From the IMG/VR virus record IMGVR_UViG_3300029706_000090, positions 1 through 5,088 of that record: a DNA stretch of 5,088 bases, one strand, 5' to 3'. This DNA comes from a virus. The translations under genes and the position numbers were made by a program. Positions 1 through 5,088 of the stretch are shown piece after piece (position 1 is the first letter of the stretch; each line of letters begins with the position of its first letter). The notes under the pieces are model-generated. The model did no database searches, was not told the DNA's origin, and saw nothing but the letters and a program-made list of their open reading frames with translations.

Positions 1-93
1 CAGAGTTGCAAGAATAGAGGAAGTAGCGGTCTGAAGTCATCATCCTTTCATAAAAATATTTATGGCACATGTCACGGTCGAAGCATGAGAACC
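1..93. repeat. Terminal direct repeat, identical to 4996-5088. Most simply a circular replicon of about 4995 bp laid out with 93 bp of overlap. Less likely, att-type duplication flanking an integrated copy.
   Basis: Bases 1-93 (cagagttgcaagaatagagg...catgagaacc) recur exactly at 4996-5088. Genes and ORFs continue across the junction. Confidence 0.95.
43..70. other. dif-like candidate XerC/D-type recombination site (tcctttCATAA-aaatat-TTATGgcacat), repeated at 5038-5065
   Basis: The inner half-sites CATAA-N6-TTATG are the most conserved core of dif sites. It lies in a noncoding gap between two small ORFs. No tyrosine-recombinase or integrase gene is present in the element. The outer arms are divergent and the region is AT-rich, so it could be chance. 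Confidence 0.3.
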
Positions 94-185
94 AACATAG
101 AGAAAACAGCAGCGAATACAATGAAATAGCCAATCTCGGGGACAGTGAAGATACCGAAACAATACTGTAAAGGTAAAATAGTCAT
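72..185 (-). CDS. 37-aa hydrophobic small protein, a candidate minor coat protein (pVII/pIX-like by size). Sequence: MTILPLQYCFGIFTVPEIGYFIVFAAVFSMLVLMLRP.
   Basis: Not in the ORF track (too short). Its ATG overlaps the stop of the upstream 205-aa ORF (ATGA at 183-187), implying translational coupling. It is a single predicted transmembrane helix. The stop is TGA at 72-74. Confidence 0.4.
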   Translation of the reverse strand: MTILPLQYCFGIFTVPEIGYFIVFAAVFSMLVLMLRP

Positions 186-802
186 CAGCTCATGCGCCCC
201 CAAATCGCGTTTTTAATCCAAGTAACAGTAGTAATGAAGACAAGGACAACAAGCAGAGCAGAAACGCAAGCTTGCGGGTTGAGTACCTGAGAAGTGGTAG
301 TGGAATCTTCCTCATAAGGGAGCTGAATAAGTTGAGTCGCACTATTATAGGAATACCTTTCAGACGTATAGCCGGACTTGTGCACCGTCTCAGTGCGTTC
401 GATAAAAAACGTGTCTCCGAACCAATCCATAATAGAAGTGAAACTATTAGAGACGTTAGGGAGATTAGCATACAAAGCCGGAGTATCTGCGGCACGGTCA
501 TCATAAGCGGTCAAACTCCCCTCAAAAGGCAATTCTTCTTCCTGAGGAACATAATCTTCACGGAGGTCAGGAGATTCAGTGATATTTTGTGCAGGTTCAC
601 CAGAAGCAGAAGCTTCAGACGGAGAATCATCTCGTGCATCTTGCTGTGAATCAAGTTTAACAATAGCTTCGGCAGATGCCTTAAGATAATCATACTGCTG
701 CACGGTCATGTCACAAGTACTACCGTCTTTATACAGCACAGTGTAGACAGTAACGCCGTCAGTATCAACCCAAGTTTTGATAATAGCAGGGACTTCCATC
801 AT
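185..802 (-). CDS. 205-aa acidic protein with a C-terminal transmembrane helix (tail-anchored), in the position pVI occupies in Ff phages. Function unknown.
   Basis: Long ORF with an excellent SD (GGAGGTGATAA before ATG). Its start overlaps the stop of the 55-aa ORF (ATGA). It has a Glu/Asp/Ser-rich middle and a C-terminal hydrophobic stretch, ACVSALLVVLVFITTVTWIK. Confidence 0.7.
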   Translation of the reverse strand: MMEVPAIIKTWVDTDGVTVYTVLYKDGSTCDMTVQQYDYLKASAEAIVKLDSQQDARDDSPSEASASGEPAQNITESPDLREDYVPQEEELPFEGSLTAYDDRAADTPALYANLPNVSNSFTSIMDWFGDTFFIERTETVHKSGYTSERYSYNSATQLIQLPYEEDSTTTSQVLNPQACVSALLVVLVFITTVTWIKNAIWGRMS

Positions 803-966
803 TTATCACCTCCATCCCAAAGGCCACGGAGAACAAAACCAACAAGCGAAAGCAGAAGACAGACAAGAACGAAGTTGCCAAAGGTACCGAAGCCGAAAAA
901 AGAAAGATTAAGGACATTAGCGATAAACGATGTTACAACACCGAGGGTCGAAACGAAGTCTACCAT
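799..966 (-). CDS. 55-aa small hydrophobic membrane protein, a candidate virion minor coat or membrane protein. Sequence: MVDFVSTLGVVTSFIANVLNLSFFGFGTFGNFVLVCLLLSLVGFVLRGLWDGGDK.
   Basis: Not in the ORF track. AAAGGA lies 9 nt upstream of the ATG at 966. The start overlaps the stop of the 43-aa ORF (ATGGTAG), and its own stop overlaps the start of the 205-aa ORF (ATGA). It has two hydrophobic segments. Confidence 0.5.
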   Translation of the reverse strand: MVDFVSTLGVVTSFIANVLNLSFFGFGTFGNFVLVCLLLSLVGFVLRGLWDGGDK

Positions 967-1091
967 GGCAACCAATCCTTTACGAATTTATAGATACCGA
1001 GGGCAACGAGAAAAACGACAACGGCGATAACAAGAGCACCACCGGAACCGAGCAAGCCAAAGACCTGCTTGAAAAAGTCAATAAAAGTCAT
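960..1091 (-). CDS. 43-aa major-coat-protein candidate (pVIII-like, with no signal peptide, as in Pf3 coat protein). Sequence: MTFIDFFKQVFGLLGSGGALVIAVVVFLVALGIYKFVKDWLPW.
   Basis: Not in the ORF track. GAAAGG lies 9 nt upstream of the ATG at 1091. The ATG overlaps the TGA of the pIII-like gene (ATGA at 1088-1091). The protein has an amphipathic N-terminus, a hydrophobic core, and Lys residues near the C-terminus, which is the typical pVIII layout. Confidence 0.5.
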   Translation of the reverse strand: MTFIDFFKQVFGLLGSGGALVIAVVVFLVALGIYKFVKDWLPW

Positions 1092-2266
1092 CCGTCAACC
1101 GCCTTTCGTATCAACATACGGAGCACAACGGCACCAAAGACCATGAGCGAAATAATGAAAAGGAAGCCGCCAAGATTCTGAAACATGGCATTTAGTACCG
1201 AAATAGAAGTCGAAGCAACGTCAGTATCTACGGAAGAAGAAGAATTCCAAGAATTCAAGTTATCCTTTGTGTTTGTGAGAGTATCGGAATCAACATCAAA
1301 GTCCTTAACAAGCTGGTCTTGAAGCTTATCCATAGTAACTTGAGAAATCCAATCACCAACCTTGACATCAGCAGGAAGCAAAGCATCAGGAACCCAAAGA
1401 GTTAAAGCAAAAGAGATAGAAACATCAAATTGCGTATTATAGACATGCATACCAGAACTAGAAGGTTGCTTACAAAAAACTAAACCAACGTCAGAAGAGG
1501 GAATAGAAAAAGCAAGGGGGAAAGGACGATAAGAGGGAGTACTTAAATGCGACATGCTCAAATGCAAATAATTATCATTAGAGGGGGAAGCCCAAAAATC
1601 ATTATCACCGTTCCGAATACTAAAAGAAGTATGATTAGTAGAACTATCGGATTTATCCCCAAAAAAGAAAATATTAGTGGGAACATAAATAGGATTATAA
1701 TCAAATATTTCGTGATCGAAATAATCAGAAATAGAAGAAGAATCAGAAGAAGGCCAAGAAGTCAAAAAACCAAAAATAGAACGGTCGGAAAAGACATCTG
1801 AAATGTTTTGAAGATCACCTCTCCATTTAACAGGATAAACGCGGAGAGCGCCAATATTGTAAGAAGGGTCACCAACAGGAAAAGAGGGCAAATCAAAAAG
1901 ATAACCAAAATCACTAGTCGGAACATAAGGAACCGAATACATATAAGTATGCGTAGTACCAGAAGAAGAAGTATAAGAATAGGTCGAAGAATCAGTTGAA
2001 TAAGGGAGCCAAGAATTATAAGAACTACCAGGGTAAGAGGAATACTCCTTCATAGGAGAGCAAATCAACTCATAACCAGAATACCCAGATAAAGACTTGC
2101 GTTGCCAAACATACCAAGAGCCAGGACGAGAATGAAAATCATCATTAGAAGGAGACGCGGGCCAATTATTAGATGCAAAAGCAGGAACAGAAAGAGAAAA
2201 AGAAAGAACCAAAGCCGCGACAAGGGCGGCGAAGCGCTTAAAGAAGCACCAATGCTTTTTATTCAC
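1088..2266 (-). CDS. pIII-like adsorption or minor coat protein. It has an N-terminal signal peptide, a Ser/Tyr-rich ectodomain, and a C-terminal membrane anchor. The probable start is GTG at 2266, which follows AAAGGTGGT + 9 nt. The maximal ORF begins at GTG 2284 and gives 398 aa.
   Basis: The signal-peptide-like N-terminus is (M)NKKHWCFFKRFAALVAALVLSFSLSVPAFA|SNN. The C-terminal hydrophobic anchor GFLFIISLMVFGAVVLRMLIRK is followed by a short basic tail. It is the largest structural gene, with tiny coat ORFs downstream of it. Confidence 0.6.
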   Translation of the reverse strand: MNKKHWCFFKRFAALVAALVLSFSLSVPAFASNNWPASPSNDDFHSRPGSWYVWQRKSLSGYSGYELICSPMKEYSSYPGSSYNSWLPYSTDSSTYSYTSSSGTTHTYMYSVPYVPTSDFGYLFDLPSFPVGDPSYNIGALRVYPVKWRGDLQNISDVFSDRSIFGFLTSWPSSDSSSISDYFDHEIFDYNPIYVPTNIFFFGDKSDSSTNHTSFSIRNGDNDFWASPSNDNYLHLSMSHLSTPSYRPFPLAFSIPSSDVGLVFCKQPSSSGMHVYNTQFDVSISFALTLWVPDALLPADVKVGDWISQVTMDKLQDQLVKDFDVDSDTLTNTKDNLNSWNSSSSVDTDVASTSISVLNAMFQNLGGFLFIISLMVFGAVVLRMLIRKAVDG

Positions 2267-2313
2267 TTCGCCACCACCTTTCACGGCATCGAATAACGGA
2301 GGTCAATCCGTAC

Positions 2314-2387
2314 TGGTTGCGGGGTTAGGATTCGAACCTACAGCTTCACGTTCAGAGCGTGACGTGCTACCGTTGCACCACCCCGCC
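2314..2387 (-). tRNA. tRNA-Gln (anticodon CUG at 2355-2353), 74 nt, with an encoded 3' CCA
   Basis: Minus-strand sequence: GGCGGGGUGGUGCAACGGUAGCACGUCACGCUCUGAACGUGAAGCUGUAGGUUCGAAUCCUAACCCCGCAACCA. Cloverleaf features by eye: acceptor stem 2-7/66-71 (6 bp, G1·A72 mismatch), U8, A14, a 4-bp D-stem GUGC/GCAC with G18G19 in the D-loop, a 5-bp anticodon stem UCACG/CGUGA, loop CU-CUG-AA with U33 and A37, a 4-nt variable loop, and a GGUUCGAAUCC T-arm (G49·A65 mismatch). Confidence 0.7.
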
Positions 2388-2447
2388 ATGTGAGAGCGGC
2401 GAACCACTCTCCCATAGGAAATGAAATTTAGGTTTGAACAAAGAAAG

Positions 2448-2690
2448 TTAAACTTCCTCAATTCCGAGAAGAAACCCATTGCGGTCGAAGTCGAAATCGT
2501 ACATAGCGCCAACAACAACAAGCGCATACGGCATCATACGAGCGTCAACATTGATTCTATCAACCTGCACGCCATCGTTGTCATCATTTGCACGCATCGA
2601 ATATTCGACCATGAGAGTAGTAAAATCATAGTTTTTGCCCTGCTTAGATGTGCCAGCGCGACGGGACTTACCAACTACAGTAGCTTTCAT
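2448..2690 (-). CDS. ssDNA-binding protein, gpV-like (80 aa)
   Basis: It lies immediately downstream of Rep, as gV does in Ff. GAAAGGATGG lies 7 nt upstream of the ATG. The segment SRRAGTSKQGKNY resembles the M13 gV DNA-binding wing TRSGVSRQGKPY (pattern S-R-x-G-x-S-[RK]-Q-G-K-x-Y). The size matches gV (87 aa in Ff). Confidence 0.6.
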   Translation of the reverse strand: MKATVVGKSRRAGTSKQGKNYDFTTLMVEYSMRANDDNDGVQVDRINVDARMMPYALVVVGAMYDFDFDRNGFLLGIEEV

Positions 2691-2708
2691 TGAGAGACCA
2701 TCCTTTCA

Positions 2709-3845
2709 TCAGAATAAAGATATATCATCAAACCCGACTTCACTAAAGGGAGAGGGGTCATCAGCGACTTCACGAAATTCTTCAACGGCAACACGCGAGG
2801 ATTCCGAGAATTGCGCAACTTCCTCTGTCAGCGCCAGAGGGGAGAACGGAAGACGCTCATTATAAAACTGTTCCCACTTACAACAAGCGAGGATTAGAAG
2901 CTCAGGGCGATAAAGCATAATATCAATAAGCCTGTGACCGAAGACATTAGCAACATAGGTCATTTTTTCTTCCTCGGTATGGATAGCAACGGAGAACTTT
3001 TGAACAAGGTCATCACTAAGGGGATGCGATAAGTCCTTAGTGAACTTAATGTTACGGGCATCAATATCGGTCACAAACTGCATATCATCCCAGCCATCAG
3101 GGAGAAGAATTTCATTCCCATAGCGACACCAGAATTTACGGAGATAAGCGAAGAGCATGTCAGGGTCTTCATAGTAAAACCAGAAAAGAGGAGAGGGGTC
3201 ATAGACGGTACGAGACCCAGCACGAACACGAGAAATGAATTTAAGCTCCATTTCATAACGAATAATATAGGAATCATCAGGGCAATCCAGAAGTTCACCA
3301 GAAGACATACAGAACTTTTGTTCAGGGTCTTGCAGAGATTTATTATAGATACGACAGAAGACCGCAGAAGACGTTCTGCGACCGATATAAACGGTAGTAG
3401 AATCGCCATAGCCTAGATACATGAACTTGCGAACCTTACGGGCTTTTTCAGGGTAATTCATTTCATCGACAGATGCAGTAACAACACCGAGATAGAACTC
3501 GCGCCACCGTTCTTTTTTCATAACAACATCGAAACAAAAGTCAAGACGGGAAAAATGACCGTATACATGACCTTCCTGCATCAGTGACGCAAGTCGTGGT
3601 AAGGTGGAGCGGAAAAGCTCACAACCATGACCAGACACTTGCAAAGAATGCGGAGATTGTTTCGCACCGTTGTTCGGCTTATAGAAAAGCCCCGCAGGGG
3701 AATTAAAAGGGGAATTCTCACTTGCGTTAGAAGTCTGTGCAAAGTGCAAATCACCCTTAGCAAGAGCATCTTCGATTTTAGGAATAGAAATTGAGCCCTG
3801 TTCAAAAGCAAATGTAGCGTAGTCAAGTTTAACAACCGTTTTCAT
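2709..3845 (-). CDS. rep: Rolling-circle replication initiator of the Rep_trans family (pT181 RepC/RepD-like). The probable start is ATG 3845, which follows AAAGGTGG. The maximal ORF starts at 3887 and gives 392 aa.
   Basis: Motifs: SRLDFCFDV near the N-terminus of the domain; CRIYNK with the putative catalytic Tyr codon at 3345-3347; YIIRYEMELK (compare the R-V-E-I-E-L-K segment of staphylococcal RepC/D). The upstream ATG at 3887 has no SD and lies inside the predicted -10 hexamer of the promoter. Confidence 0.8.
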   Translation of the reverse strand: MKTVVKLDYATFAFEQGSISIPKIEDALAKGDLHFAQTSNASENSPFNSPAGLFYKPNNGAKQSPHSLQVSGHGCELFRSTLPRLASLMQEGHVYGHFSRLDFCFDVVMKKERWREFYLGVVTASVDEMNYPEKARKVRKFMYLGYGDSTTVYIGRRTSSAVFCRIYNKSLQDPEQKFCMSSGELLDCPDDSYIIRYEMELKFISRVRAGSRTVYDPSPLFWFYYEDPDMLFAYLRKFWCRYGNEILLPDGWDDMQFVTDIDARNIKFTKDLSHPLSDDLVQKFSVAIHTEEEKMTYVANVFGHRLIDIMLYRPELLILACCKWEQFYNERLPFSPLALTEEVAQFSESSRVAVEEFREVADDPSPFSEVGFDDISLF

Positions 3846-3877
3846 GTGAGAAAACCACCTTTCATTTCCATGGCTAA

Positions 3878-3906
3878 ATGTTACCATAGTATGGATAAGC
3901 TGTCAA
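3878..3906 (-). promoter_or_regulatory. Sigma70-like promoter reading into rep on the minus strand: -35 TTGACA (3906-3901), 17-bp spacer, -10 TAACAT (3883-3878)
   Basis: Perfect -35 hexamer, optimal 17-bp spacing, 4/6 match at -10. It lies about 35 nt upstream of the SD and ATG at 3845. It is the only obvious promoter on the coding strand, which is consistent with a single operon that ends at the terminator at 4089-4141. Confidence 0.5.
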
Positions 3907-3922
3907 GAGGAAATTTCAAAAA

Positions 3923-3949
3923 GGTGGGCGTATTACACGAACGCCCACC
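3923..3949. other. 9-bp perfect inverted repeat (GGTGGGCGT...ACGCCCACC) with a 9-nt loop. It is a candidate plus-strand origin, Rep nick-site hairpin or operator just upstream of the promoter.
   Basis: Perfect complementarity between 3923-3931 and 3941-3949, in the noncoding region between the terminator and the rep promoter. Confidence 0.4.
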
Positions 3950-4010
3950 GGCTCCCGCCATCACGGTAGACACTACACAACGGAAGCCCCTACCAAACTG
4001 TTTAGGAGGG

Positions 4011-4029
4011 GCAAGGGCTTTGCCCTTGC
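4011..4029. other. 8-bp GC-rich hairpin (GCAAGGGC-TTT-GCCCTTGC) in the intergenic region. It is a candidate for a minus-strand origin, packaging signal or ori structure.
   Basis: Perfect 8-bp stem with a 3-nt loop, embedded in a GC-rich noncoding segment (3950-4088) that is atypical of the rest of the genome. Confidence 0.35.
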
Positions 4030-4088
4030 GGGGACGAGGGACGCGGTGGAGACGCTATCGCGCGACTAAACGTCGGGAGTGCTCCGGT

Positions 4089-4141
4089 AAAAAAAAGAAC
4101 TCCCCTAACCCCCTACGGGGGCACGGGGAGAACTTTTTTTT
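4089..4141 (-). terminator. Strong bidirectional rho-independent terminator. It ends the minus-strand operon directly after the Zot-like gene.
   Basis: A8 (4089-4096), then a two-tier GC stem CTCCCC/GGGGAG (4100-4105/4125-4130) enclosing CCCCC-TAC-GGGGG (4109-4121), then T8 (4134-4141). On the minus strand the stop codon TAA (4142-4140) runs into the stem-loop, followed by UUCUUUUUUUU. Confidence 0.75.
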
Positions 4142-4763
4142 ACTTCGAGGGGGTCTTGCTGATAACCTGCTCTGTATCGTATTCTAAGGCACTCACCTGC
4201 TTCACGGACTTAGGGATAGTATACCACCTTGCCCTGCCAGCCTTGCGCACCGTGTTGACCAGCTCTTGGCCTCCCTCGGGGCGATGTTCCATGGCAATGC
4301 AGGAGCGATAAGGAGTAAGACGACAGAACCAGCCGATGCGGTTGCAAAGAAAAATACGGTCACAGAGGTCACGAATCTTTTTATCAAAGTCCATGGTCTG
4401 AGAAGATACAATAATCGTCAAATGATATTTGCGCTGCATTTTGAAAAACTCAACTGCTTCTCGGGGCATAGTCTTGAAGTCACGGTTAGAGTGGAGCACG
4501 CCTATCTCATCAATGAGAATGAGAGAATCAGGGAGAAAGGTCTGTTTCCAATATTCCGGCTCTAACTCATAACCGATACCCATATTAGAATAGATAAGCC
4601 CCTTATTAGAACGAAGCCACTTATCAGCAACACGAGACATATACAGAGATTTGCCAGAGCCTTTTGAACCAACAACAGCTTCCAATTTGTATGGATTTTT
4701 GCAATAATTATCGATATATACAAAAAGCCAGCAAATACAAAAGATGAGAATACCATAAAGCAT
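4140..4763 (-). CDS. Zot/pI-like P-loop NTPase, a filamentous-phage assembly ATPase. This short form has an N-terminal transmembrane helix and no C-terminal periplasmic domain. The probable start is ATG 4763, which follows AAAGGA + 9 nt. The maximal ORF starts at 4781 and gives 213 aa.
   Basis: Walker A GSKGSGKS is encoded at 4670-4647. Walker B LILIDEIG compares with Zot FLFIDECG. YHLTIIVSSQT compares with Zot HHGWDICLTTPN. The N-terminal hydrophobic segment is LYGILIFCICWLFVYI. It is the last gene before the terminator, as gI is late in Ff. Confidence 0.75.
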   Translation of the reverse strand: MLYGILIFCICWLFVYIDNYCKNPYKLEAVVGSKGSGKSLYMSRVADKWLRSNKGLIYSNMGIGYELEPEYWKQTFLPDSLILIDEIGVLHSNRDFKTMPREAVEFFKMQRKYHLTIIVSSQTMDFDKKIRDLCDRIFLCNRIGWFCRLTPYRSCIAMEHRPEGGQELVNTVRKAGRARWYTIPKSVKQVSALEYDTEQVISKTPSK

Positions 4764-4786
4764 AGCATATAATCCTTTCATAAGAC

Positions 4787-4829
4787 GAGAAAACGTCGCC
4801 GACCATAAAATGGTCGGCGGCGTTTTCTC
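4787..4829. other. 19-bp near-perfect hairpin (one G·U pair) with a 5-nt loop, between the 42-aa coat-like ORF and the Zot-like gene. It is a candidate packaging signal, minus-strand origin or attenuator.
   Basis: GAGAAAACGTCGCCGACCA (4787-4805), loop TAAAA, then TGGTCGGCGGCGTTTTCTC (4811-4829). It ends 5 nt before the ATG at 4781. No U-tract follows in either orientation. Confidence 0.5.
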
Positions 4830-4836
4830 TCAGCGT

Positions 4837-4965
4837 TTAACTGCGACCGGGAATCCAGCGGCGGAGAACACGAAGCACAATGCCCGCGATAGCGATAATC
4901 ACGAAGACAAGCAGAATCGGCTGCGATTCATAGAAATCAATAAGCTGACCCATCCAAGTGATCAT
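4837..4965 (-). CDS. 42-aa pVIII-like coat protein candidate. Sequence: MITWMGQLIDFYESQPILLVFVIIAIAGIVLRVLRRWIPGRS.
   Basis: Not in the ORF track. It has the canonical major-coat layout: an acidic amphipathic N-terminus (D10, E13), a hydrophobic core, and a basic C-terminus (four Arg). It is followed by the 19-bp hairpin, which is reminiscent of the structure after gVIII in Ff. There is no clear SD, so the start is uncertain. Confidence 0.4.
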   Translation of the reverse strand: MITWMGQLIDFYESQPILLVFVIIAIAGIVLRVLRRWIPGRS

Positions 4966-4995
4966 CGAAGTGAAGAATTCACCGACCAAGGAAAG

Positions 4996-5088
4996 CAGAG
5001 TTGCAAGAATAGAGGAAGTAGCGGTCTGAAGTCATCATCCTTTCATAAAAATATTTATGGCACATGTCACGGTCGAAGCATGAGAACC
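4996..5088. repeat. Second copy of the 93-bp terminal repeat (equals 1-93)
   Basis: Exact identity with 1-93, offset 4995. Confidence 0.95.

Follow-up and report, generated by a model that had tools for sequence, protein, structure and literature searches.

An initiator-type tRNA with a switched anticodon probably starts coat translation at a private codon in a small gut inovirus

The stretch of DNA studied here, all 5,088 nucleotides (nt) of the IMG/VR virus record IMGVR_UViG_3300029706_000090 (hereafter the window), is best explained, from its sequence, as the complete 4995-bp circular genome of an inovirus, a small filamentous phage, with a Bacillota-type gut bacterium as its host. As a genome, it belongs to an already known kind of virus. 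Our subject is two of its genes: a transfer RNA (tRNA) gene that stands between the replication and structural genes, and a coat-like gene that has no canonical start codon. We propose that the phage tRNA is an initiator type with a switched anticodon and that it probably starts translation of the coat at a codon private to the pair.

The genome encodes a replication initiator (Rep), a small single-stranded DNA-binding protein (SSB), the tRNA, a pIII-like protein, a set of small hydrophobic proteins, the coat-like protein and a Zot/pI-like assembly ATPase (Zot); the tRNA and all supported genes share the minus strand, which is T-rich (Table 1). The terminal 93 nt are 100% identical, which gives the circular unit of 4995 bp. 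We found 27 relatives in IMG/VR via Rep, nearly all of them contigs of 4.0-5.7 kb, and many have terminal overlaps of 79, 94-99 or 119-121 nt with break points that differ along a common gene circle. Since overlaps of k-mer size at varied break points point to circles linearised by the assembler, the circle of about 4995 bp proposed in a first-pass annotation of the letters alone stands, as does the one-strand layout that it described.

Table 1. Features of the window, with positions on the 5,088-nt stretch
Feature	Position	Strand	Remarks
Terminal overlap	1..93		duplicates 4996-5088; assembly artefact of the 4995-bp circle
Shine-Dalgarno AAAGG of the coat-like gene	5039..5043 (= 44-48)	minus	10 nt upstream of CAG
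Coat-like gene, 63 amino acids (aa)	4837..5028	minus	spans the assembly junction
tRNA, anticodon CUG	2314..2387	minus	CCA encoded; ARAGORN, Rfam
Rep, rolling-circle replication initiator, 378 aa	2709..3845	minus	Rep_trans-like; ATG 12 nt past AAAGG
OB-fold SSB, 80 aa (RstB/gpV analogue)	2448..2690	minus	predicted fold
pIII-like protein open reading frame (ORF)	1088..2284	minus	probable start GTG 2266, 392 aa; phrog_24417 E=6e-70
43-aa hydrophobic protein	960..1091	minus	candidate minor virion/assembly protein; phrog_22214 E=1e-26
55-aa hydrophobic protein	799..966	minus	phrog_24276 E=2e-34, match begins at its ATG
205-aa protein	185..802	minus	C-terminal membrane anchor; phrog_27347 E=7e-129
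37-aa hydrophobic protein	72..185	minus	phrog_27039 E=2e-27, match begins at its ATG
Zot/pI-like assembly ATPase, 207 aa	4140..4763	minus	N-terminal transmembrane helix, Walker A GSKGSGKS
att core TATCGCATCCCCTTAGTG	3014..3031	minus	within rep (about codons 272-277); forms the direct repeat that flanks integrated copies
Promoter-like TTGACA-17 nt-TAACAT	3878..3906	minus	TG extended -10, upstream of rep; -35 and TGnTAACAT kept in aligned relatives
Intergenic hairpin GGTGGGCG-N11-CGCCCACC, then T-run	3923..3949	minus	conserved; candidate terminator, origin or packaging element
Hairpin with stem CGCCGACCA/TGGTCGGCG and T-rich tail, between coat and Zot	4787..4829	minus	candidate terminator/attenuator
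Hairpin between A- and T-runs directly 3' of Zot	4087..4143	minus	bidirectional, intrinsic-terminator-like

Both ARAGORN and Rfam (53.5 bits) call the tRNA with anticodon CUG, and ARAGORN labels it tRNA-Gln. Four GenBank relatives also have it, and so do all IMG/VR relatives apart from three truncated contigs. When 44 distinct family members are aligned, 92% of the cells in the cloverleaf are paired and 14 of the 21 pairs have double changes; none of 500 shuffles was as good, and no slid register came close. The first-pass annotation had noticed this embedded tRNA, which is real and conserved, but had taken it as an oddity and overlooked the missing start codon of the coat gene.

The acceptor stem is that of an initiator. 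In the window, G1.A72 is unpaired and is followed by G2:C71 and C3:G70, with A73 as discriminator. Among the 44 aligned sequences, 1:72 is unpaired in 37, U-A in seven and G-C or C-G in none, and G2:C71, C3:G70 and G5:C68 are invariant (44/44). Over a wider set of 70 distinct tRNAs, N1:N72 is G:A in 42, C:A in 16, U:A in 8, A:A in 2 and U:C in 2, and N73 is A in 52. An unpaired 1:72 pair, G2:C71 and C3:G70 are the determinants of initiator tRNA for the formyltransferase Fmt (PMC5389676). The window tRNA shares with bacterial tRNA-fMet the unpaired 1:72, G2:C71, C3:G70, G4:C69, A73 and the encoded CCA; it differs in its shorter D-loop, in U11:A24, in the absence of the three G-C pairs of the anticodon stem and in CUG in place of CAU, and is thus no tRNA-fMet. 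Versions of tRNA-Met with CAU and with the D-arm of the window tRNA occur in tailed-phage contigs.

Sequence searches point the same way. In a blastn search of 5426 E. coli genomes, the best full-length match was tRNA-Met, found at 4 places per genome with 77.6% identity over 97% of the length; the match inspected is the triple metZWV cluster beside amiC (CGCGGGGTGGAGCAGCCTGGTAGCTCGTC.GGCTCATAACCCGAAGGTCGTCGGTTCAAATCCGGCCCCCGCAACCA), not tRNA-Gln. Among phage records, full-length matches outside the inoviruses are annotated tRNA-Met, and matches to tRNA-Gln are only internal (64-75%). Bacterial tRNA-Gln has U1:A72 and G73; the typical tRNA-Gln genes of phages that a search for the same D-arm pattern brought up have 1:72 paired as A1:U72 and likewise have G73. 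Of these elongator traits the window tRNA has the Gln anticodon but not the paired 1:72 or G73 (it has G1.A72 and A73). Judged by its sequence, the tRNA joins an anticodon arm for Gln to an acceptor stem of the initiator type.

Phage tRNAs are classically explained by codon compensation (PMC10264068). On that account the gene would be an elongator tRNA-Gln(CUG) that makes up for poor decoding of CAG by the host, with its match to the coat gene incidental. The CUG anticodon and the ARAGORN call are as expected, and CAG is slightly commoner in the phage than CAA (24 against 17). We nevertheless consider this account very unlikely, since the acceptor stem lacks the paired 1:72 and the G73 of phage tRNA-Gln and resembles an initiator, and since 24 CAG codons in a 5-kb genome are a small benefit for a 74-nt gene. 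A 1:72 mismatch also disfavours binding to EF-Tu. Nor does codon compensation predict the Thr, His, Glu or amber anticodons of sister phages, each of which matches the codon at the Shine-Dalgarno (SD) site of the coat gene, as described below.

The coat-like gene lies just upstream of Zot and is the sole ORF in the window that resembles an inovirus major coat protein in size and charge pattern. Its 63-aa product has a variable N-terminus rich in S/T/A/G/P, a hydrophobic core/helix and a basic C-terminus, RVLRRWIPGRS. We found no ATG, GTG or TTG start at its SD: the first codon is CAG at 5028-5026 (= 33-31), and the frame is closed by TGA TGA right before CTT CAG. This CAG is found without exception in the window-clade genomes that have the coat gene, and it stands at AAAGG+10, as the start does in genes with ATG or GTG. 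The distance from AAAGG to the start is 10 nt for Zot, the 43-aa and 55-aa genes and the pIII-like gene, 11 nt for SSB and 12 nt for Rep; the AAAGG-N9-11-start pattern described earlier therefore holds as a spacing rule (10-12 nt), but the coat gene has CAG there and no start codon. No other SD+CAG site in the genome has a long ORF and lacks an upstream in-frame NTG.

The coding signature of the coat frame reaches the CAG. Over the 18 codons ahead of the first in-frame ATG, we counted 144 synonymous and 50 non-synonymous differences in the coat frame, as against 20/174 and 3/173 in the other two frames, and the N-terminal length differences among coat proteins are whole codons. This bears on a start further downstream, at TTG 4989 or at the ATG near 4965, which would leave the segment QTATSSILATLLSLVGEFFTS untranslated and reduce the tRNA-codon matches to chance or hitch-hiking. 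Such a start would agree with the ORF listing, where the coat ORF begins at TTG 4989 (50 aa), and with the in-frame ATG 20 codons after CAG. It is highly improbable, however, given the frame-specific differences and whole-codon indels just described; in addition, many members of the clade have CAG (Q) where the window has this TTG, neither TTG nor ATG is preceded by an SD, and the tRNA-codon matches reach a permutation value of 1 in 200,000 (see below).

Two other routes to an ordinary start were rejected. If TGA were read as sense (code 4 or 25), the coat ORF would extend to an upstream ATG, but relatives have TTG or AAG in place of that ATG, and TGA is the stop of Rep and of the 205-, 55- and 37-aa genes at positions supported by PHROG matches. 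A +1 frameshift from the out-of-frame ATG ATG fails as well, as there is no common slippery site, the two ATGs are too near the SD and frame 0 evolves like non-coding DNA.

The gene has escaped annotation. Public gene callers skip it and call a spurious antisense ORF of 103-106 aa in its place (for example on the minus strands of the prophage contig L334, at 12514-12834, and of L337, at 2952-3263), which may be a systematic annotation error for the clade, and none of the public records examined has the coat gene annotated. Its homologues occur in one or two copies adjoining Zot in relatives, and its 63-aa product matches no Pfam, PHROG or PDB family. Sister clades often have two coat paralogues, a short one whose start is ATG or GTG, and a longer one that is headed by the private codon and has an additional N-terminus rich in S/T/P/A/E; the window clade has only the longer one.

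The anticodon of the tRNA and the first codon of the coat gene change together. We compared about 90 related elements: blastn with the tRNA had first revealed distant inoviruses with other anticodons, and relatives were then collected via the Zot protein from IMG/VR, gut metagenomes and species-representative genomes, with tRNAs called by ARAGORN and coat genes by a hidden Markov model. The elements fall into ten anticodon/codon classes, and in every one of them the anticodon of the tRNA is complementary to the codon that one coat gene has at its SD (Table 2).

Table 2. Anticodon of the phage tRNA and codon at the coat SD in ten classes
Anticodon	Codon	Loci	Remarks
CUG	CAG	many lineages	SD+8 to +10
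UUG	CAA	L210, L211, L288	
AUG	CAU	L214	
GUG	CAU	L212	G.U wobble
CGU	ACG	L032, L208, L209, L302, L307, L308	
UGU	ACA	L037, L226, L228, L233, L237, L269 group	
AGU	ACU	L035, L225-L239 group, L268, L290, L317	
GGU	ACC	L242, L322	
CUA	UAG	L189	
CUC	GAG	L269	GAG-headed coat-like ORF begins 27 nt after the tRNA

The agreement is specific. Within the Thr box, the third codon base tracks anticodon position 34, and the neighbouring Thr codons remain ACT. In the class-by-codon matrix, the diagonal is 1.00 in 8 classes; away from it the values are low, with ACT, a common codon, as the exception. Only one in 200,000 label permutations reaches the observed value, and the cognate codon is present in 68 of the 69 tRNA-bearing loci with enough sequence. 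Presence of the tRNA also goes with the kind of coat start, as counted over loci whose sequence is long enough to include a tRNA: among those with the tRNA, the coat has no NTG at its SD in 63 and has one, beside the cognate codon, in 6, and among those without it the numbers are 1 and 22 (Fisher p = 9e-15, uncorrected for phylogeny). Relatives without the tRNA use ATG, GTG or TTG coat starts (22/23 loci), and many relatives in Oscillospiraceae and Lachnospiraceae are of this kind, with no tRNA and an ATG coat start. An Rfam re-scan of twelve ARAGORN-negative loci found a tRNA in none.

These results also bear on a chiefly structural role of the tRNA, either as a processing signal at which RNase P/Z splits the early (rep-ssb) from the late mRNA or as a signal for a single-stranded DNA origin or primer, with the coat started by re-initiation or frameshift. 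The tRNA always lies between the replication and structural modules, and in one type (that of L036 and of the second element in L269) it lies 27-30 nt upstream of the coat start; the out-of-frame ATG ATG overlaps the SD region, and slippery TTTT or CTTT stands ahead of CAG in L003 and L013. A processing or origin role, however, needs neither an anticodon that tracks the first coat codon through ten classes nor a conserved T-loop, CCA and acceptor determinants. The frameshift route meets the further difficulty that just 0-4 nt, too short a distance, separate the ATG ATG from the SD, that the ORF in frame 0 is non-coding in its substitution pattern and that no slippery site is common to the clade. 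We regard this account as unlikely in place of initiation, and a processing role could coexist beside an initiator role.

We propose the following course of events for coat initiation by the phage tRNA. The tRNA would have derived from, or converged on, the bacterial initiator type, with its anticodon changed from CAU to CUG, and the sole coat-like gene would have lost its ordinary start and come to begin at the CAG placed 10 nt from a strong SD. Transcribed with the early genes, the tRNA would be cut out by RNase P and 3' processing, and its aminoacylation would follow the anticodon, probably with Gln. The host formyltransferase would then formylate it, because the unpaired 1:72, G2:C71 and C3:G70 determinants are kept, and the 1:72 mismatch would keep it out of elongation. 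Initiation factor 2 (IF2) would bring it to the P site of the 30S subunit, where it would pair with CAG, and coat synthesis would start. Coat production would in this way hang on a phage-private pair of initiator and start codon. The possible pay-offs are control of timing or dosage, with coat synthesis coupled to the level of the phage tRNA; insulation from the start-site rules of the host; insulation of a membrane protein that may be toxic to a cell with the prophage; and a non-Met N-terminus on a surface-exposed protein made without a signal peptide.

More widely, we think it likely that gut inoviruses, and possibly some tailed phages, use a natural form of orthogonal initiation, in which an initiator-type tRNA with a switched anticodon (CUG, UUG, GUG/AUG, NGU, CUC or CUA) would serve a complementary private start codon, sense or stop, so that the coat would be made only with the phage tRNA and would carry a non-Met N-terminus.

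Textbook bacterial initiation has one initiator tRNA (fMet) and uses AUG or near-cognates. Engineered tRNAfMet(CUA) nevertheless begins proteins with formyl-Gln at UAG codons, and further mutants of the anticodon initiate at the non-AUG codons that complement them (PMC11744186). Since such engineered anticodon-switched initiators work, the proposed mechanism is feasible. The engineered amber initiator is charged with Gln and formylated, and a natural counterpart exists in L189, which has CUA with UAG at the coat SD; the engineered initiators are laboratory constructs, whereas natural evolution appears to have produced the present pair, in a virus of 5 kb and for one structural gene. Schulman and Pelka reportedly converted tRNA-Met to Gln or Thr acceptance by anticodon changes alone; taken as a lead and not as evidence, this would fit the predominance of Gln and Thr anticodons in the relatives.

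Several observations weigh against the proposed initiation. The anticodon stem of the window tRNA is A29:U41, C30:G40, G31:C39, so the 3GC feature of initiators is absent, and within the family G30:C40 is found in only 31 of 44 members and C:G in 9. In E. coli the middle G-C pair is an essential part of 3GC, and a mid-CG mutant failed to sustain growth (PMC5389676). The initiator-typical A11:U24 is replaced by the elongator-like U11:A24 in 41 of the 44. To our knowledge, many Bacillota lack glutaminyl-tRNA synthetase (GlnRS), which makes the charging enzyme for a G1.A72 tRNA(CUG) a difficulty. The coat-like protein is a candidate major coat protein by its size, charge pattern and position, with no match to a curated coat family in Pfam or PHROGs. 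Six loci with the tRNA (L269, L273, L275, L278, L292 and L307) have a TTG directly before the cognate codon, as does L210, outside that count, before its CAA, and L241 has an in-frame ATG inside the SD; in these loci a canonical coat start is possible. L245/L246 and L271/L280 have neither a detected tRNA nor an NTG placed at the SD, and an ATG follows 3-9 codons on. Finally, the statistics ignore phylogeny, and independence comes from the ten anticodon classes.

In the two last-named pairs of loci, the codon at the SD-proximal coat position is GCT or ACT; the Rfam re-scan covered L245 and L271 only. These loci may be intermediates after loss of the tRNA, or may have an unusually long spacing between SD and start. 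In another relative (L018, tRNA at 1578-1646), the anticodon loop has an extra base (CTACTGAA; ARAGORN 'anticodon actg') and the coat still starts with CAG, and this may be a sequencing error or a variant with an 8-nt loop.

The clade integrates. A search for integrated copies, envisaged in the first-pass annotation, found prophages of the window clade on three contigs of 101, 36 and 51 kb (L334 9660-14699, L335 9660-14692 and L336 773-5805). Their junctions have a 13-18-bp direct repeat, (TATC)GCATCCCCTTAG(TG), on both sides, with the circle opened at window 3031-3014. Integration splits rep, leaving an N-terminal part of about 291-296 aa at one end and an 84-aa C-terminal ORF at the other; excision would restore the gene. 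We recognised no dif-like site. The earlier statement that the genome has no lysogeny module thus holds for its gene content, which includes no integrase or repressor, but not for its behaviour, as the clade integrates with an att repeat inside rep.

The position of the att core bears on a further account, in which the tRNA is a defence-evasion spare against an anticodon nuclease or the attP remnant of integration at a host tRNA gene. Phage tRNAs are able to evade defences that target tRNAs (PMC10264068, PMC11464382), and many inoviruses integrate at tRNA genes (PMC6813254). The tRNA as attP was ruled out, however, because the att core of this clade is in rep and not in the tRNA. The tRNA is also full-length and shows compensatory evolution, and neither a spare nor a remnant predicts that the differing anticodons of close relatives always match the coat start. 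Both forms of this account are scarcely credible.

The flanks of the prophages have 54-58% GC, and their genes include those for HSP20, for HtpG and for two large proteins with SLH domains; since SLH proteins flank the copies, a Bacillota-type host is supported. The flanking proteins of L334 matched no named genome among the collected loci. Oscillospiraceae, Lachnospiraceae and other Clostridia have distant relatives integrated in their genomes, and two cultured strains have a tRNA-bearing prophage, Oscillibacter ruminantium GH1 (CGU/ACG) and Oscillospiraceae bacterium 44-34 (CUG/CAG). The guess of a Firmicutes-like host, offered earlier as weak, gains support from these prophages and from the SLH-flanked copies of the window clade. 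We rejected as host evidence the closest genome match, a contig of an Alistipes onderdonkii metagenome-assembled genome (L287, CAVDWO010000002.1), which looks like a chimera, a binning artefact or a remnant: one end of its 95.9 kb (58% GC) consists of 1.8 kb of window-like phage (1-1802, the 55-aa gene through Zot, with 73% nucleotide identity), and the phage is joined at the 3' end of Zot to unrelated DNA at a junction that differs from the att site.

The other genes are those of a secretin-less inovirus. The Zot product scores 22.9 bits against Pfam Zot, above the gathering threshold of 20.3, and matches phrog_25712 (E=6e-149), phrog_197, Zot-like (E=6e-9), and phrog_1675, 'protein I of M13'. 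For Rep, the Pfam call alone is sub-threshold (Rep_trans, E=1.4e-5, 25.2 bits, gathering threshold 29.6), and the match to phrog_27843, 'replication initiation protein', covers 378/378 positions (E=1e-248), with a further match to phrog_453 (E=1e-6). The 80-aa protein encoded beside rep has an OB fold in its structure model and is, on this prediction, a small SSB analogous to RstB/gpV. The comparison of Rep, Zot and SSB with known families, proposed in advance, thus returned Pfam and PHROG matches for the first two and a modelled OB fold for the third; PDB sequence searches with the three gave nothing useful. The 392-aa protein has an N-terminal signal peptide and a C-terminal membrane anchor, and its position and topology suggest a pIII-like protein. 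Zot is very short, and its sole transmembrane helix is ahead of the Walker A motif; in Ff pI, the helix comes after the ATPase domain.

Pfam and PHROG scans of the window ORF products found no secretin, integrase or repressor family, and no tyrosine or serine recombinase or transposase was found among the nine ORF products scanned, a set in which the coat-like ORF had its 50-aa TTG-start form. Together with the Zot score above the Pfam threshold and the PHROG matches of Rep and Zot/pI, this agrees with the first-pass annotation, which had described a complete minimal inovirus-like genome without pIV secretin, integrase or regulatory module. Its gene order was partly wrong, as the 205-aa gene stands among the small ORFs and not behind them (Rep, SSB, tRNA, pIII-like, 43 aa, 55 aa, 205 aa, 37 aa, coat-like, Zot), and the intergenic region, given as 182 nt, measures 294 nt from Zot to Rep (3846-4139).

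Known inoviruses of monoderm hosts (the MT1352xx genomes, bajarodino viruses and those of Enterocloster/Hungatella; PMC10061712) are likewise circles of 5-8 kb with their genes on one strand, and encode Rep, a small RstB-like SSB, a pIII-like protein, tiny hydrophobic proteins and Zot/pI, with no pIV. By megablast, the window matches four circular porcine genomes in GenBank (MT135292/293/296/305, each 'UNVERIFIED: Inovirus sp.') at 82-88% identity over 19-48% of its length. These four (L001-L004) share the structural module and the same tRNA(CUG) with the window; their Rep is only 37-39% identical in amino acids, and their promoter region differs. A common structural module with a divergent Rep implies that lineages swap modules, with the intergenic region and the tRNA as the points of exchange. 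A protein search with SSB found 667 homologues, so the clade is very common in gut data; the best 120 of the 667 are at least 86% identical and lie mostly on contigs of about 5 kb. CTXphi-type inoviruses have a Rep_trans-family Rep followed by an RstB-like SSB, and Zot, and integrate without a phage integrase. The window resembles them in Rep, small SSB, Zot and integrase-free integration, and differs in that its att core is inside rep and splits it.

Public inovirus records annotate neither the tRNA nor the coat gene, and PQ006172 has a coding sequence drawn across the tRNA. The Enterocloster inovirus paper makes no mention of a tRNA (PMC10061712), and Roux et al. 2019 treat tRNAs only as att sites (PMC6813254). 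A literature search, not exhaustive, found no report of inovirus-encoded tRNAs or of natural anticodon-switched or non-AUG initiator tRNAs. As far as these searches show, a natural, dedicated non-AUG pair of initiator and start codon is without precedent; prior work is possible. The nearest natural likeness is in the suppressor tRNAs of recoded gut phages (PMC10879173), where a phage tRNA likewise alters codon reading and late or structural genes are unreadable without it. Those suppressors act in elongation on in-frame stops throughout late genes, whereas the phage tRNA here has an initiator-type acceptor and would serve a single start-site codon, mostly a sense codon.

If the proposed initiation is true, phage tRNAs have a new function beside codon compensation, defence evasion and stop-codon recoding, and there is a class of genes invisible to present gene callers. 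It would also offer about ten natural orthogonal pairs of initiator and start codon for synthetic biology, and a possible principle of control in very abundant gut phages, a structural gene locked to a tRNA that the phage supplies. Because tRNA-bearing prophages are present in cultured strains, the idea is directly testable.

The promoter before Rep and the terminator after Zot that had been predicted both have a candidate element, the former a promoter-like site conserved in relatives (TTGACA-17-TAACAT read from 3906 to 3878) and the latter a hairpin with a T-run. A single promoter-to-terminator unit is probably too simple, since there is a second terminator-like hairpin between coat and Zot and since the tRNA needs excision from a long transcript. 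In all 18 aligned genomes, the stem of this second hairpin is invariant and its loop variable, even where the flanks diverge. An invariant stem without covariation suggests a protein- or DNA-level signal, such as a terminator, a packaging signal or a minus-strand origin. Its place recalls the terminator after gene VIII of Ff phages. Rep ends with TGA TGA (window 2690-2714, minus strand), and SSB follows in frame after 5 codons; a read-through fusion of Rep and SSB was considered and judged to be probably a coincidence (chance 1 in 3).

On two contigs, a second, different inovirus-like element adjoins the first prophage (L269, 8820-8894 and from 8922 onward; L278, 8319-8392). The ORF that corresponds to the GAG-headed one was not flagged by the scan in L278; in L269 it is of the L036 type ('FMWW..RK') and lies 27 nt past the tRNA. 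The tRNA(CUC) of both has the full GGG/CCC initiator signature in its anticodon stem.

A DNA-pattern scan of IMG/VR with the 5' half of the tRNA was unspecific; among the matches listed, most were tRNA-Met and tRNA-Gln of tailed phages. Small contigs with a CAU tRNA (L062, L069, L077, L091 and others) were considered as ancestral inoviruses and rejected, as they have no Zot or coat homologues. Some tailed-phage contigs have tRNAs with C1.A72, G2:C71, C3:G70 and A73 and with anticodons other than CAU, namely CCT/CCU in L064, L066, L089 and L110, CAG in L044 and CGT/CGU in L106 (4610-4683). The idea of a private initiator may thus reach beyond inoviruses, to tailed phages. The proteins of L106 include an SPP1-type portal and minor capsid protein 2.

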